Shown here piece after piece: positions 1 to 47,556 of a stretch of DNA of 64,000 nt. Both the position numbers and the translations under genes were made by a program. Each line of letters begins with the position of its first letter. Position 1 is the stretch's first letter. Source of the stretch: Candidatus Latescibacterota bacterium (GTDB lineage: Bacteria; Latescibacterota; UBA2968; UBA8231). The notes beneath the pieces were generated by a model. The model ran no database searches. It saw nothing but the letters and a program-made list of their open reading frames with translations, and had not been told where the DNA came from. Where the stretch lies: the NCBI GenBank assembly GCA_965203355.1, contig OZ241889.1:1536001-1600000 (forward strand). Direction: 5' to 3'.

Positions 1-1710
1 CTGGTGGTCGTGTACGCGATGATGGTCGTGGCGTCGGCGATTCCCACGTGGGGATTGGTGACGAACCTGTGCCACATCCTCACCCGCCCGTTCTACTACG
101 CCACGCCAGAAAATCGCTGGACCGAGCTGATTCAACCGCTGATTCCCGCTTGGCTCGCGCCGGACGAACCTGAAGCCGCGCGTTTCTTCTACGAAGGACT
201 GCCCGCGGGGATGGGCATTCCGTGGGGGGCTTGGCTGGTGCCGCTTATGGCGTGGGGCAGCGCGATGCTGGCGGTCTATCTGCTGATGATCGCCACGATG
301 GTCGTCTTCCGGCGGCCTTGGGTCGAACAGGAGCGGCTGGTCTTTCCGCTGGCGCAGGTGCCCTTGGAAATGCTGCGCGGCAACGACGAGGGCATTTTCC
401 CACAGTTGTTTCGCAATCCGCTGATGTGGGTCGGGTTTGCGCTGCCCTTTGCCATCCAAATGTTGGACGGGCTGAACCACTACTTCTTTTACGTGCCCGA
501 GGTGCGGCTGGTGTTCGATCCGCTGATGCTGTTCCGCGATAGCGTACGGCTGCACATCTTCGTCAACTTCGCCATTATTGGCGTGGCGTACTTCCTCAAC
601 CTCAACGTGGCCTTCTCGGTGTGGTTTTTCCACTTGTTGAGCCGCTGCCAGACCGGGGTTTTCAACGTCATCGGCTTTGAGGTCAAAGGGCACAATGAGG
701 CACTGACGGGTTCTTCGGTGGCCCTGTCGCACCAAGGGATGGGGGCGATGCTGGTGCTAGTGGGGGCGATTTTGTGGACGGCGCGAGGTCACTTGCGCCA
801 AGTGTTCAGCGCGGCGTTTAAGCGCGGGGTCCAAGCCGACGATGGCGACGAGATTCTCTCGTACCGGGTGGCCGTGTGGCTGTGGATTGTCTGCGCGGCT
901 TACTTCCTCGGTTGGCTGATGCTGAGCGGGGTGCCGGTGGTGGCTGCGGTGGTATTTTTCGGCGGGGCGTTTGTCATTTTCTTGGCCATTGCGCGGGTCA
1001 TTGCCCAAGGTGGCGTGGGCTTCACCTCTTCGACGATGCTGCCGCAGCCCTTTGCGGTCTATACCTTGGGCACGGATGTCATCGGCTGGAAGGGGCTGGC
1101 GTCGATTAGCCTGAGTTATTCGTGGGCCGCTGAAATGCGTACCACGGTCATGGCTTCCACGGCCAACGCGCTCAAGCTGGCGCACGGGCATGGGGCCAAT
1201 CACCGCCGCCTGTTCTGGGGGCTGGTTATTGCGGTCGTCATCGGCATGATGGGGGCTTTCTGGATCACGCTCTATTTGAACTACACGCACGGCGGGATCA
1301 ATCTGCGCCAGTTCGGGGTGCCGACGCTGGCCTATCGCTTTTTGGAGGACAAGATTCACAATCCCGTCGGCTGGGATCACGTCCGTCCTCGGCTGCTGTT
1401 TACGGGTGTGGGCGCGGCCTTAATGGGCGGGCTGATTTACATGCAGCATCACTTTCCGTGGTGGCCGTTGCACTACATCGGGCTGCCGGTGAGCGACAGT
1501 TGGGTCATGGGGGTGGCGTGGTTTTCGGTGTTTTTGGGCTGGTTGGGCAAGGCCGTGGTCTTCAAGTTCACAGGTACGCGCGGCTACCGCGCCTACAAGC
1601 CTTTCTTCGCCGGGCTGATCGCCGGGCAGCTTTTAGGGGCGGCACTGTGGATGGTGATCGACTTTTGCCTGGGCGAGGTGGGGAATGTGGTGTACGTGGG
1701 GGTGCGATGA
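1..1710 (+). CDS. DUF6785/DUF6784-family multi-pass membrane protein (putative peptide-transporter-associated), 5' truncated by window edge
   Basis: 568-aa open frame with many TM segments; motifs 'RRPWVEQERLVFPLAQVP' and 'FPWWPLHYIG' typical of the family; paralog at 16525-18429. Confidence 0.75.
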   Translation: MVVVYAMMVVASAIPTWGLVTNLCHILTRPFYYATPENRWTELIQPLIPAWLAPDEPEAARFFYEGLPAGMGIPWGAWLVPLMAWGSAMLAVYLLMIATMVVFRRPWVEQERLVFPLAQVPLEMLRGNDEGIFPQLFRNPLMWVGFALPFAIQMLDGLNHYFFYVPEVRLVFDPLMLFRDSVRLHIFVNFAIIGVAYFLNLNVAFSVWFFHLLSRCQTGVFNVIGFEVKGHNEALTGSSVALSHQGMGAMLVLVGAILWTARGHLRQVFSAAFKRGVQADDGDEILSYRVAVWLWIVCAAYFLGWLMLSGVPVVAAVVFFGGAFVIFLAIARVIAQGGVGFTSSTMLPQPFAVYTLGTDVIGWKGLASISLSYSWAAEMRTTVMASTANALKLAHGHGANHRRLFWGLVIAVVIGMMGAFWITLYLNYTHGGINLRQFGVPTLAYRFLEDKIHNPVGWDHVRPRLLFTGVGAALMGGLIYMQHHFPWWPLHYIGLPVSDSWVMGVAWFSVFLGWLGKAVVFKFTGTRGYRAYKPFFAGLIAGQLLGAALWMVIDFCLGEVGNVVYVGVR

Positions 1711-1802
1711 ACGGCCGCGGCTCAGAGAAGTTAGATGCCCGCGTTACAGGGCAACCACCCAGAGGGCGATGAACGACCGCGACTCAGAGGATTTGGATGC
1801 CC
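1704..1802. repeat. Imperfect 37-bp direct repeat (1704-1740 / 1766-1802) at the junction of two convergent genes
   Basis: gcgatgaacggccgcggctcagagaagttagatgccc vs gcgatgaacgaccgcgactcagaggatttggatgccc, 32/37 identical. Confidence 0.8.
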
Positions 1803-2512
1803 CATTCAGCACACCGCGCTTTCACACGCGCAGCCGGTTCTAAGCTGATGAGGGCCCCTTCGACCGCTTTGTCGGGCTGCTGCCGCCGCACCAGTTCGAC
1901 CTTGTCGGCAAATCGATCCACCTCTTCGACCTTGCAGGCGGCCGACTTCACCTCAAAGACCAGCAGCGAACCGTTATCGATCAGAATATCGACTTCGTAG
2001 GTTCGTCCGGCCGGCCCGACTACCCCCTCCTCATCCGCTAGCTTCTGCCGCAGCCGTATGTTGTCGGCGGATAGGTCTTGCCGCTTCAGCCCAAAGCGCA
2101 ACGCCCCGGCCACCACGTCCTCCAACTTCCTACCGGCCCGCCGTTGGAATCCCCCGACCGTCAGATCGAGTTTATCGGTTCTATCTTTTATTTCGGCCGT
2201 CTGCTGTTTCATCTGCTCAAGCTGCTCATCGACTTTTTCAAATCGCTCATCAACTTTTTCAAATCGCTCATCGACTTTTTCAAACCGCTCATCGACTTTA
2301 TCAAACCGCTCGTTGACCTCCGAGCGGAATTGACCCAATTCGCCGCGGAGGGCATGTAACTCAGCGAGCACGGTGGCCACTTCCTTTTTGGTGGCAAACG
2401 CTTCAATGAACGCCGTATAGGCGCGCTGCTCCAACGCCGGGTGCCGTTTGAGCAGGGCCGGCAATTGCTTTTCGAGCGTCTCCAATAATTCTTCATCCGT
2501 TAAAAGAGCCAT
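1784..2512 (-). CDS. DUF3782-like coiled-coil protein with C-terminal PD-(D/E)XK nuclease domain
   Basis: ATG at 2512 with AGGAGG RBS; heptad repeats (FEKVDER)n; 'EVDILID...VFEVKS' nuclease motif. Confidence 0.75.
   Translation of the reverse strand: MALLTDEELLETLEKQLPALLKRHPALEQRAYTAFIEAFATKKEVATVLAELHALRGELGQFRSEVNERFDKVDERFEKVDERFEKVDERFEKVDEQLEQMKQQTAEIKDRTDKLDLTVGGFQRRAGRKLEDVVAGALRFGLKRQDLSADNIRLRQKLADEEGVVGPAGRTYEVDILIDNGSLLVFEVKSAACKVEEVDRFADKVELVRRQQPDKAVEGALISLEPAARVKARCAEWGIQIL
2224..2317. repeat. 21-bp tandem repeat (~4.5 copies) encoding coiled-coil heptads
   Basis: gctcatcgactttttcaaatc units starting at 2224, 2245, 2266, 2287, partial at 2308. Confidence 0.9.
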
Positions 2513-45912: not shown

Positions 45913-45972
45913 CTTGCGTCCAATGCAGAGTGGGGTAAGGCGTTGCAAAATAAAGCCAAACGGGTGCTTTGG

Positions 45973-47556
45973 CTATGCCGCGACAAAGCGCTCGATGACG
46001 TTGGCGGTGATGCGCGAGACGGTCTCATCTACGAGGATTGAGGCCGGATAGGTGATGGAGCCGACGGAAAAAACCGCGCCGCCGCTGGCCGTTTCGTAGT
46101 GGACGATTTCTGCGCCGCCTTGGTCGGGGTTGAGGCCGCGCGCGACGATTTCGGTGCCGGGGGGCGAAAAGGGCGAGGTCTTATCGGTCTCGTGGCCGGA
46201 GGCCCCGCCGGGGATCCGCTCGTGTAGGCTGGCCTCGCCAAAGGTGTCGCCGTTTTTGACGCCCGTGTTGGCGAAAATCCAGTGGTCGGCGGCGAGGACT
46301 TGGTACGGTGCGGCCGTCATAATGCCCGGATGGGTAAAGACCACGCCAAGCAGGTTGGCCTCAGACTCGTTGTACTGGTGAAAGCGGCTCTCGTGGCCCT
46401 CGGCTCGCTGGACGCGCCCGTCGCCGTTTTTGACCTTCATCGTCTGCTCGTCGATTAGCTCCACCTCGCAGTTGAGGCCGTTGCCGCCCAAATACATGAA
46501 TTGGCCGCCGCGCTCGCGCACCCACGCCTTGATGTCGTAGTACATCTTGCGCGACCAGTACTCGGGATGGGTGGTGGTGATGAGGATTTTGTACTGGTCG
46601 AGGTCGAGTTGGTCAAAGTGTAGTTGGGTCTCGGCGTACAGGTCGTAGGCGTACCCCTCGCGCTCTAGCCAGCCGAGGAAGCGCCACTCGGCCGGGGCGA
46701 CATGGCAGGCCGCGCGCCCGGCAATGGGGTCGGTGATCGCGACGTGCTCGGGAATGTGGTTGATCGGCTCCGGGCGGTCGAAGGAGAGCGGAGCGTAGTC
46801 CTCGGCGTCGTAGTTGATGTGCTCGGGGTCGGTGTAGCGCTTGAGTTCCAAGCGGGCATTGATCGTCGGCGTGGGCGGGAAGCCGTCGGGATGGATGTAG
46901 TTGGATCGTCCGCCGAAGCTGTTGTACGCATTCCAGTTGATGTTGGCAGCGAGGACGGCGATGTCTGCGCTGGGGGTGGCTGGAGCGACGATCCAAGGAA
47001 AGGAAAAGAACGCGCCAGACTCGCCTTTGGCATGGAAGTAGTAGAGGCCAGACCGCTCGGGCGCGGCGACGAACTGCTTGTGGGAGGGGCTGGTGTAGCC
47101 AAACTTGTTCCACATGACCCCGGTCTGCGTGTAGTCGCCGTCCGGCGTGATCTGCATGGTGGCACGCGGCCCGTGCTCGTCGAACCAGCCCAGCGGGCGG
47201 ATGTGCTCTTTTTGCCAGCCGTAGCGCCACAAATCAAGGCGGTAGGCTTCGAGCGAGTGGACGCGGAACTCGGCTCGCTCGCCCGCTTGAACCCACTTGG
47301 GCCAGGCGTAGCCGAGCAATTGATGTGCGAGCAAGCGGAAGTGATGCGGCCGCTCGGGGTGGATGTTGACCTGCCCGCGCTTGGGGCCGAAACCGTCTTT
47401 TTGCAAGGTCACGGTGTAGGGGCCGGGCGGGATGTCGGCGAAGACCTCGCCGGTGGCTCGCGAGCGAGTTTCGACGTGCAGGTTTTCGCTGGCGATTTCG
47501 AACTGCACGTCGTGCAGAGCGATGTAGCGTTCGTCGCTGACGTAGCCGATTAGCAT
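45973..47556 (-). CDS. N,N-dimethylformamidase beta-subunit-like domain protein with N-terminal carboxypeptidase-regulatory-like domain
   Basis: 'WNAYNSFGG.S.Y', 'LSFDRP', 'HPEYWS', 'YLGGN', 'GHETD', 'GAVFSVGSI'. Confidence 0.75.
   Translation of the reverse strand: MLIGYVSDERYIALHDVQFEIASENLHVETRSRATGEVFADIPPGPYTVTLQKDGFGPKRGQVNIHPERPHHFRLLAHQLLGYAWPKWVQAGERAEFRVHSLEAYRLDLWRYGWQKEHIRPLGWFDEHGPRATMQITPDGDYTQTGVMWNKFGYTSPSHKQFVAAPERSGLYYFHAKGESGAFFSFPWIVAPATPSADIAVLAANINWNAYNSFGGRSNYIHPDGFPPTPTINARLELKRYTDPEHINYDAEDYAPLSFDRPEPINHIPEHVAITDPIAGRAACHVAPAEWRFLGWLEREGYAYDLYAETQLHFDQLDLDQYKILITTTHPEYWSRKMYYDIKAWVRERGGQFMYLGGNGLNCEVELIDEQTMKVKNGDGRVQRAEGHESRFHQYNESEANLLGVVFTHPGIMTAAPYQVLAADHWIFANTGVKNGDTFGEASLHERIPGGASGHETDKTSPFSPPGTEIVARGLNPDQGGAEIVHYETASGGAVFSVGSITYPASILVDETVSRITANVIERFVAA

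Follow-up and report, generated by a model that had tools for sequence, protein, structure and literature searches.

How do accessory genes gather at fixed positions between core genes when no mobile element is visible beside them? For defence and toxin-antitoxin (TA) genes this is an open question (PMC10250203; for this and every other paper cited here, our statements concern the sections available to us). It is raised again by a 64-kb stretch of DNA from a sponge-associated lineage of Candidatus Latescibacterota (contig OZ241889.1 of assembly GCA_965203355.1, positions 1,536,001 to 1,600,000), hereafter called the window. An initial annotation of this window had described five clear loci sharing one geometry, in which the intact end of a host gene is followed by cargo, by a displaced copy of that same gene end and by the next backbone gene. 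Four of them, L1 to L4, are true insertions that duplicate 36-172 nt of their target, as seen from the comparison of the window with itself and from the empty sites of related genomes; the fifth, L5, turns out to be a tandem duplication. The four are best explained as integrase-free insertions with long target duplication, placed at core-gene 3' ends.

Self-BLAST of the window returned 14 non-self matches, among which six are direct repeats. Four of these show the geometry described above (L1-L4); the remaining two are a repeat internal to hsdS (41870 / 42461) and the head-to-tail tandem duplication of L5 (40678-41285 / 41287-41827), and the inverted matches bracket no cargo. The repeats of L1-L4 are 36-172 nt long, enclose 0.7-9.2 kb of cargo, and each spans the stop codon of its host gene or ends 10 nt ahead of it. 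Gene families were assigned with Pfam and NCBIfam, and PADLOC was also run on the cargo; none of the three revealed an integrase or transposase family in any cargo open reading frame (ORF) scanned. Relatives were picked because they carry a cimA-family protein, and their genomes were then searched; the closest genome found is G042 (about 93% identity to the window), while G001 stands at about 90% DNA identity and, when aligned, has uninterrupted flanks at L1-L3. In addition, each locus was searched across 75 genomes of the order to which G001 belongs, the counts being taken by reading the result rows. The initial annotation had it right that the events are recurrent and leave the flanking genes intact, that the repeats are unrelated to each other in sequence, that no integrase or transposase is recognisable in the cargo, and that alleles with a single 3' end should exist in relatives, which is the case at all four loci.

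L1 lies at the end of an oxidoreductase gene:

2572 to 3759, plus strand: host gene of L1, a GFO/IDH/MocA oxidoreductase (Pfam), whose last codon and stop come from the inserted side
3584 to 3755, plus strand: functional copy of the L1 repeat (self-BLAST, alignment)
3756 to 4443, minus strand: L1 cargo region, with a DUF5615 gene (PIN-like, 3778-4116) and a DUF433 gene (4113-4337)
4444 to 4571, plus strand: L1 displaced copy with the original tail and stop (alignment)

The repeat (3639-3755 / 4457-4561) has a core of 87 nt that is 100% identical and, if two gaps are allowed, reaches 3584-3755 / 4444-4561; the gaps correspond to two in-frame deletions (42 and 12 nt) in the displaced copy, on the side nearer the cargo. 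The cargo had been described as inserted after a stop codon, which does not hold at L1: here, it sits 10 nt ahead of the original stop, the functional copy ending in ...AWRA* and the displaced copy in ...AWRAGC*. Both Pfam families are found in adjacent, overlapping genes (E-values of 8e-27 and 4e-25), the pair being a putative TA module. Its G+C content at third codon positions (GC3) is 0.46 in the DUF5615 gene and 0.61 in the DUF433 gene, against 0.74-0.84 in the backbone; PADLOC found nothing in the cargo of L1 or of L3. The site is empty, with a single copy, in G001, G042, and G053, and in the 75-genome search the gene end occurs without the cargo in 23 genomes and together with it, as one piece, in G041 alone. 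In that genome the gene-side joint of the cargo is identical and the tail is replaced in the same way, and there is no displaced copy; this is what a donor would be expected to look like. Further DUF433/DUF5615 copies in G001 and G005 have no flanking repeats and match over the genes only, not over the cargo ends; the cargo is, thus, not an element with fixed ends.

L2 concerns the end of a GNAT acetyltransferase gene:

20402 to 20540, minus strand: L2 displaced copy of the GNAT gene end, 139 nt (self-BLAST, alignment)
20541 to 21776, plus strand: L2 cargo with an Rpn-like gene (20734-21711), including 12-nt repeats at 21475-21542
21777 to 22761, minus strand: host gene of L2 (Acetyltransf_6 GNAT, 21778-22761; Pfam) with the functional copy of its end (21777-21915; self-BLAST)

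The two copies (20402-20540 / 21777-21915) differ by seven mismatches over 139 nt, and the displaced one lies 5 nt from the stop codon of a convergent gene (18279-20396). According to the alignment, six of the seven differences are derived in the displaced copy; five are non-synonymous and two synonymous. The site is empty in G001 (alignment); among the 75 genomes, 15 have it empty, five carry the Rpn-like cargo and at least three are otherwise arranged. Two complete chromosomes, G053 and G051, contain the whole of L2.

The L2 cargo gene encodes a product of 325 aa that matches no Pfam family at E<=0.001 and reaches 16.9 bits against the Rpn family model TIGR01784, below the cut-off of 52.1 and over its C-terminal part only. 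This same part holds four copies of a 12-nt (four-residue) repeat at 21475-21542, and two of the 120 homologues listed bear the source name “predicted transposase YdaD”. According to the available sections of Zhong 2023 (PMC10400941), rpn genes are TA and defence genes whose products have variable four-residue repeats in the C-terminal part; target duplications around them are not reported there. Two further observations come from sequencing run X1. The number of repeats in the Rpn-like gene varies, one contig having 25 additional letters of the repeat at 21475-21542. Another contig joins 20416 to 21768, skipping 1351 nt where an in-register empty allele would skip 1375 nt; the L2 cargo is also present in this run, at equal depth.

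L3 is the shortest of the four repeats:

29163 to 30763, plus strand: host gene of L3, a cimA/leuA-family synthase (Pfam; stop codon at 30756-30758), with the functional copy at 30728-30763 (self-BLAST)
30764 to 31961, plus strand: L3 cargo, with ORFs 31097-31390 and 31368-31877 (profile scans, GC3)
31962 to 31997, plus strand: L3 displaced copy (alignment)

Its copies (30728-30763 / 31962-31997) are identical at 36 of 36 nt, and the displaced one stops 1 nt short of the argJ start (31998). Since it abuts that start, the native 36 nt upstream of argJ have been retained. Neither cargo ORF belongs to a family, and their GC3 values are 0.48 and 0.43; ORF 31368-31877 looks PIN-like, on protein-atlas features only. 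The cargo DNA has no match in five relatives. The site is empty in L001/G001 (alignment), and the wider search found it empty in 11 genomes and occupied between cimA and argJ by an insert of varied length in 13. A related cargo in G042 uses the same gene-side joint and has no displaced copy.

L4, together with L5 inside it, is a type I restriction-modification (R-M) island:

36648 to 36762, minus strand: L4 displaced copy of the DMFA2_C gene end, abutting the hsdR stop (alignment)
36763 to 45948, minus strand: L4 cargo, the type I R-M island, with hsdR (36762-39764), hsdS (41699-43012), and hsdM (43903-45948)
45949 to 47556, minus strand: host gene of L4 (DMFA2_C family, 45973-47556; Pfam), with the functional copy at 45949-46086 (alignment)
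40678 to 41832, minus strand: L5, two head-to-tail units, 41287-41832 and 40678-41286 (self-BLAST)

The repeat (36648-36762 / 45949-46086) is 100% identical over 80 nt and interrupted by a 23-nt gap in the displaced copy. The R-M cluster is recognised by its HSDR_N/ResIII/SWI2_SNF2, N6_Mtase/HsdM_N, and Methylase_S domains; the island also has a HicB-like gene, coiled-coil genes and small ORFs. G003 and G004 have the site empty, with one copy, while G001 and G042 possess the same island with the same joint at the hsdR stop. The displaced copy has lost 23 nt in the window and about 80 nt in G001, and nothing in G042; as the deletion differs from genome to genome, it must have arisen later, as decay.

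L5 was counted among the five clear loci, and it is a tandem duplication of the hsdS end and a coiled-coil gene rather than cargo flanked by a target. Its unit consists of the last ~190 nt of hsdS plus the coiled-coil gene, its two halves (40678-41285 / 41287-41827) abut, and the hsdS end is single in G001 and G042. Several other features of the island may be recorded here. The hsdS gene contains an exact repeat of 44 nt (41870-41913 / 42461-42504, 591 nt apart), which we take to be the usual conserved regions between the two target-recognition halves. Within the island are three coiled-coil genes related to one another, of which one is inverted; repeats of 21 nt (heptads) run through the coiled-coil genes of the window (2196-2321, 40767-40871, 41376-41438, and 40104-40361), for which profile scans and PADLOC gave weak SMC/JetC-like coiled-coil matches only. 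Finally, hsdR and hsdM are 76% and 82% identical to genes located at another place in G005 (G005:C1:1297409-1313539), compared with about 66-75% for core genes, which suggests that the R-M system (36762-45948) may have been transferred between distant members.

Are four such loci in 64 kb more than one would expect? A fixed scan for unique direct pairs (length 30 nt or more, identity 85% or more, spacing 200-25,000 nt) found four pairs in the window and four in 1.22 Mb made up of 74 unrelated cimA loci; the density of the window is, thus, about 19 times that of the control set (Poisson P(>=4) = 7e-5). No such pair exists in the syntenic 67 kb of G002 and G004. The genome-wide self-repeat scan that the initial annotation had called for was made on relatives and did bring up further cases, about 10 in ~1.24 Mb of G001 and two or three in 400 kb of G005. 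Seven of the G001 cases and one of those in G005 span the stop codon of the host gene, the rest being intergenic or lying over a gene start. Taking the window, G001 and G005 together, at least 14 distinct gene ends bear unrelated repeats. A nested arrangement in G005 (256992/259662/261642) was left out of the count, as it fits both of the main models discussed below.

The cargo had been summarised as defence and TA genes, which is correct in part. In G001 and G005 it includes two Rpn-like genes with two other genes, a DUF4258 pair, and DUF1828 with DUF6978; one G001 case carries a 675-aa PD40 beta-propeller protein, and cargo of this kind means that defence genes alone are not what is inserted. 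One has to keep in mind that not every insertion of the lineage has this geometry, since four G001-specific insertions in the syntenic stretch (1045, 750, 1300, and 4246 nt) show no long repeats. Among the insertions without long flanking repeats, we note G001:C56:2984-3733, between the genes matching window 26021-27424 and 27438-28040; G001:C56:10683-11982, after accA; and G001:C49:108139-109183, between window positions 16488 and 16489. These three replace 0-20 nt of spacer.

The concept of long target duplication for R-M systems is said to go back to Nobusato et al. in 2000. Furuta, Abe and Kobayashi (2010, PMC2853133) defined the insertion with long target duplication for such systems by repeats of more than 30 bp, an insert of less than 20 kb and no other mobile element. 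Likewise, the repeats described here measure 36, 139, 87-172, and 89-138 nt, all above 30 bp; a related genome with one copy and no insert exists at each of L1-L4; and the inserts (0.7-9.2 kb) stay below 20 kb, with no mobility gene found. The overlap with a gene 3' end is also shared, at least by some of the repeats mentioned in the legend of their Figure 3. As for the R and M genes that their definition places in the insert, L4 contains them and L1, L2, and L3 do not. L4 agrees on every point and is, thus, a member of the class; L1-L3 agree on all the others while lacking R-M cargo, which speaks against a cause specific to R-M systems. “Long target duplication”, one of the terms of the initial annotation, was, thus, the right name for a phenomenon already published.

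The differences from the insertions of Furuta 2010 (PMC2853133) lie in the cargo, which here comprises TA pairs, an Rpn-like gene, coiled-coil genes and a beta-propeller protein; in the high density (about 10 cases in ~1.24 Mb of G001, four in the 64-kb window); in the stacking of cargo at one site; and in the homogenisation of the copies within a genome. In PMC3874152 and PMC2654758, as far as their available sections go, “long target duplication” concerns R-M systems or appears in the reference list. Among the papers listed from 2011 on, nothing of this kind was seen for bacteria, and the supplementary figures of Furuta 2010 may hold comparable cases. What is new here is the range of cargo types, the density, the hotspot behaviour with different cargo and the within-genome homogenisation, the kind of event itself being already in print.

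The latter two points deserve closer attention, as they bear on the mechanism. The gene ends are hotspots for accessory genes: from one genome to another, a given site may be occupied by different cargo, in some cases stacked. At the very spot of L2, G042 carries a different cargo of 1.39 kb with its own 38-nt repeat, and in G043 a further cargo is stacked beyond the 139-nt copy. At G001:C105, three copies of one gene end are separated by two cargo blocks, and there, as in G043, the displaced copies of the stacked cargo are nested. The gene-side joint is common to genomes with and without a displaced copy, as G041 illustrates at L1 and G042 at L3.

The copies themselves are just as informative. 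In all four pairs in which the repeat falls short of the original stop by 4-13 nt, a new stop is present in the functional copy within 1-3 codons, for which the chance probability is 3e-4; this fits a second, functional allele of the gene end. Copy differences are synonymous in 11 of 11 cases in G001:C105a and in four of five in G001:C39a. The outer boundary of the repeats lies near the stop, at a mean relative position of 0.19 where 0.5 would be expected if it were uniform (P ~1e-4), in a test that is conditional, its 11 pairs having been chosen for overlapping a stop. Although the joints are shared, a copy is generally closer to its own partner than to its counterparts in other genomes. At L2, the identity between partners is 95, 92, 89, 89, and 89%, and the displaced copy of the window is 80-86% identical to other displaced copies; the exception comes from G044 and G043, in which the copy of another genome scores 91%, slightly above the partner. 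The two L4 copies of G042 are identical at 140 of 140 positions and share letters specific to that genome, those of the window being identical over 80 nt. Within each genome, the paired copies are thus shown to be homogenised, either by gene conversion or by repeated excision and re-entry; repeat identity, thus, gives no date for an event.

Which process would produce such insertions? In our view the likeliest mechanism, with a probability of roughly 0.45, is homologous recombination anchored in the gene end, by which a circular or tandem intermediate would undergo Campbell-type integration. The gene end would act as a portable homology anchor. DNA of a relative carrying its own gene end plus cargo would turn circular, or take the form of a tandem unit such as L5, and a single RecA-type crossover into the unoccupied gene end, as in Campbell integration, would leave the gene followed by the cargo, the displaced gene end and the former downstream DNA. 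The two copies, recombining later on, would become homogenised and might release the cargo cleanly. Each cargo would first have come to lie beside a stop codon by a rarer, illegitimate event.

The reuse of gene ends, the shared gene-side joints and the synonymous-only pairs all argue for homology with the gene end as the driver. Entry by a single crossover requires a circular or tandem intermediate, and the tandem unit of L5 does have the form of a gene end plus cargo. The empty sites, the hotspots, the donor-like arrangement of G041, the new stops, the homogenisation of the pairs and the absence of Ku complete the support: Ku (PF02735) was found in none of five relatives, in a search that matched the Bacillus subtilis control and did not extend to LigD or competence genes.

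Several proposals of the initial annotation have to be seen in this light. A sequence-independent mechanism is contradicted by the reuse of the same gene ends with different cargo, by the shared joints and by the synonymous-only pairs. The Rpn protein had been put forward as a catalyst; the Rpn-like gene is itself cargo, flanked by a 139-nt duplication just as unrelated genes are by theirs, and is missing from the other events, so it is no candidate for the catalyst. DUF3782, the other nuclease put forward, was detected in no protein scanned; neither proposal has support. Clean excision by recombination, on the other hand, stays plausible, the pair copies being kept homogenised within each genome.

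A number of observations nonetheless weigh against such an anchored crossover. Neither a circle nor an excision joint was seen, and no back-joint across a cargo is among the 15 joints listed, in data consisting of contigs only; the runs were kept as contigs that break at repeats, in which rare empty alleles or circles cannot show. At L1 and L3, the cargo is foreign in composition (GC3 0.43-0.61) and the repeats are native and identical. The L2 differences have the look of a decaying local copy, not of a donor allele, and an allele resembling the head of the L1 displaced copy, with its two in-frame deletions, occurs in none of the 75 genomes; this head was accordingly dropped as evidence for a donor allele. 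The synonymous-only differences could also be explained by a later allele replacement of the functional copy. The far joints, inspected by eye, are nearly blunt, with 0-2 nt of shared letters. Lastly, the model does not explain why the end point of the cargo is the same whether or not there is a displaced copy.

Most of these difficulties would be met by a duplication of the target in place, which we rank second and consider rather unlikely. Opposite-strand nicks 36-172 nt apart would be filled in and a foreign linear fragment ligated between the ends, with selection keeping only the events that spare both neighbouring genes. Repeats would then be the recipient's own, as they are in L1 (87 nt identical) and L3 (36 nt identical), next to compositionally foreign cargo, nearly blunt far joints and, at L2, a displaced copy resembling a decaying local one; it also fits that the cargo ends are not conserved where these gene families occur elsewhere. 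A role for double-strand breakage has already been suggested by Furuta 2010 (PMC2853133). Against such a repair, the outer boundary clusters at the stop codon (0.19 vs. 0.5 in the 11 pairs selected for stop overlap); the model also sits badly with the new stops within three codons in four of four pairs, with the synonymous-only differences of C105a, with the same joint occurring with and without a displaced copy, and with the lack of Ku in five of five relatives. To our knowledge, moreover, no enzyme cuts with a stagger of 36-172 nt. Self-ligated restriction fragments were also considered, and a search by eye for palindromes at the far joints found nothing consistent.

We regard as improbable a switch of template during replication, in which the nascent strand would leave near the gene end, copy foreign DNA and re-enter 36-172 nt upstream, the section in between being copied twice. 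In its favour, the duplication varies in length, the L1 displaced copy shows, on its side nearer the cargo, slippage-type deletions between short repeats, and no dedicated enzyme is required. Against this, the joints share 0-2 nt only, the L4 deletions differ among the window, G001 and G042 and, thus, point to a later origin, and other pairs are sharp-ended.

Even less probable is an origin as remnants or satellites of islands moved by an integrase, with the repeats as attL and attR and the element supplying the replacement gene end. The geometry equals that of islands at gene 3' ends, and replaced tails with their own stops are precisely what such elements provide; yet no cargo ORF scanned encodes an integrase, at least 14 gene ends with unrelated repeats would demand as many specificities, and the cargo goes down to 0.7 kb. 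An assembly artefact from mixed strains, conceivable for a metagenome-type source whose run contigs break at repeats, can practically be dismissed, since copies that differ (95% identity at L2, gaps at L1 and L4) cannot stem from collapsed repeats, the same structures are present in other assemblies including complete chromosomes of relatives, and contigs of four runs from three studies cover the cargo with its joints and extend into the repeats.

Among known systems, the crossover anchored in the gene end has its closest parallel in Campbell-type integration, in which a single crossover of circular DNA yields homology, insert and homology by general recombination only. The layout of the product is the same; the homology is short here (26-172 nt), and no circle was observed. 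Islands of tyrosine or serine recombinases at gene or tRNA 3' ends also show a restored gene end and a displaced copy, but no integrase was found in our loci, whose repeats are numerous and unlike one another and whose cargo is very small. Insertion sequences and transposons differ in that no transposase family was found here and the duplications are long (36-172 nt) and variable. Homology-facilitated illegitimate recombination, known from naturally transformable bacteria, resembles our events by its one homologous and one illegitimate joint and by the foreign DNA placed beside a conserved gene; it usually deletes DNA of the recipient, instead of duplicating it. Johnson et al. (2023, PMC10250203) have described core defence hotspots in which no type of element can be recognised, and have proposed transfer via flanking homology. 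Our sites behave like scar-bearing miniatures of these hotspots; they share with our loci the variable cargo between fixed core genes and the absence of an evident element type, and differ by their much larger cassettes and by the lack of a displaced-gene-end scar per accretion.

Two weaker cases had been added to the five loci, and neither belongs to the series:

1704 to 2670, minus strand: coiled-coil gene (1784-2665), shared with G041 and G053 and an insertion by comparison with G001 and G042
11354 to 11842, plus strand: remnants of a two-gene stretch that is whole in G001

In the first, the 37-nt repeat (1704-1740 / 1766-1802, 62 nt apart) adjoins the coiled-coil gene and does not flank it; G041 and G053 have one copy of the repeat, then the coiled-coil gene. 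In the second, the supposed displaced copy (11657-11825) was rejected as a deletion scar, ORF 11657-11842 being the tail of an 887-aa gene intact in G001. In the stretch of G042 matching this region, a 216-nt unit is tandemly repeated with 98.6% identity (G042:C1:3939403-3939834). Elsewhere in the window, 24137-24240 and 47569-47640 are hairpin-forming stretches of short GTCACTGACCAC-like units that match each other inverted and look like a dispersed intergenic repeat family. The bin 24003-24669 has a depth about eight times that of its neighbours in three runs, and the G001 contigs C49 and C56 end and begin at the position of this hairpin stretch (24137-24240 / 47569-47640).

What, then, do these loci mean for the way in which a chromosome acquires its accessory genes? 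The phenomenon does not depend on restriction enzymes, and each accretion leaves a scar that can be read. About two dozen close relatives, many of them complete, show the same sites empty, occupied, differently occupied or stacked, and this dense comparable set makes the mechanism, left open in the 2010 paper (PMC2853133), testable by comparison and by recombination assays. A step further, the 3' ends of core genes might serve as portable attachment sites of a general recombinase-free cycle, in which units of gene end plus cargo would loop out as circles from tandem or duplicated arrangements, pass between related cells and re-enter, through a single homologous crossover, any copy of that gene end still unoccupied; we hold this generalisation to be possible, if on balance unlikely. 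If true, such a cycle would build and reshuffle the defence hotspots at which no mobile element is seen; the displaced gene end would be a datable scar of each event, and thanks to the pair of repeats the cassette would stay excisable.

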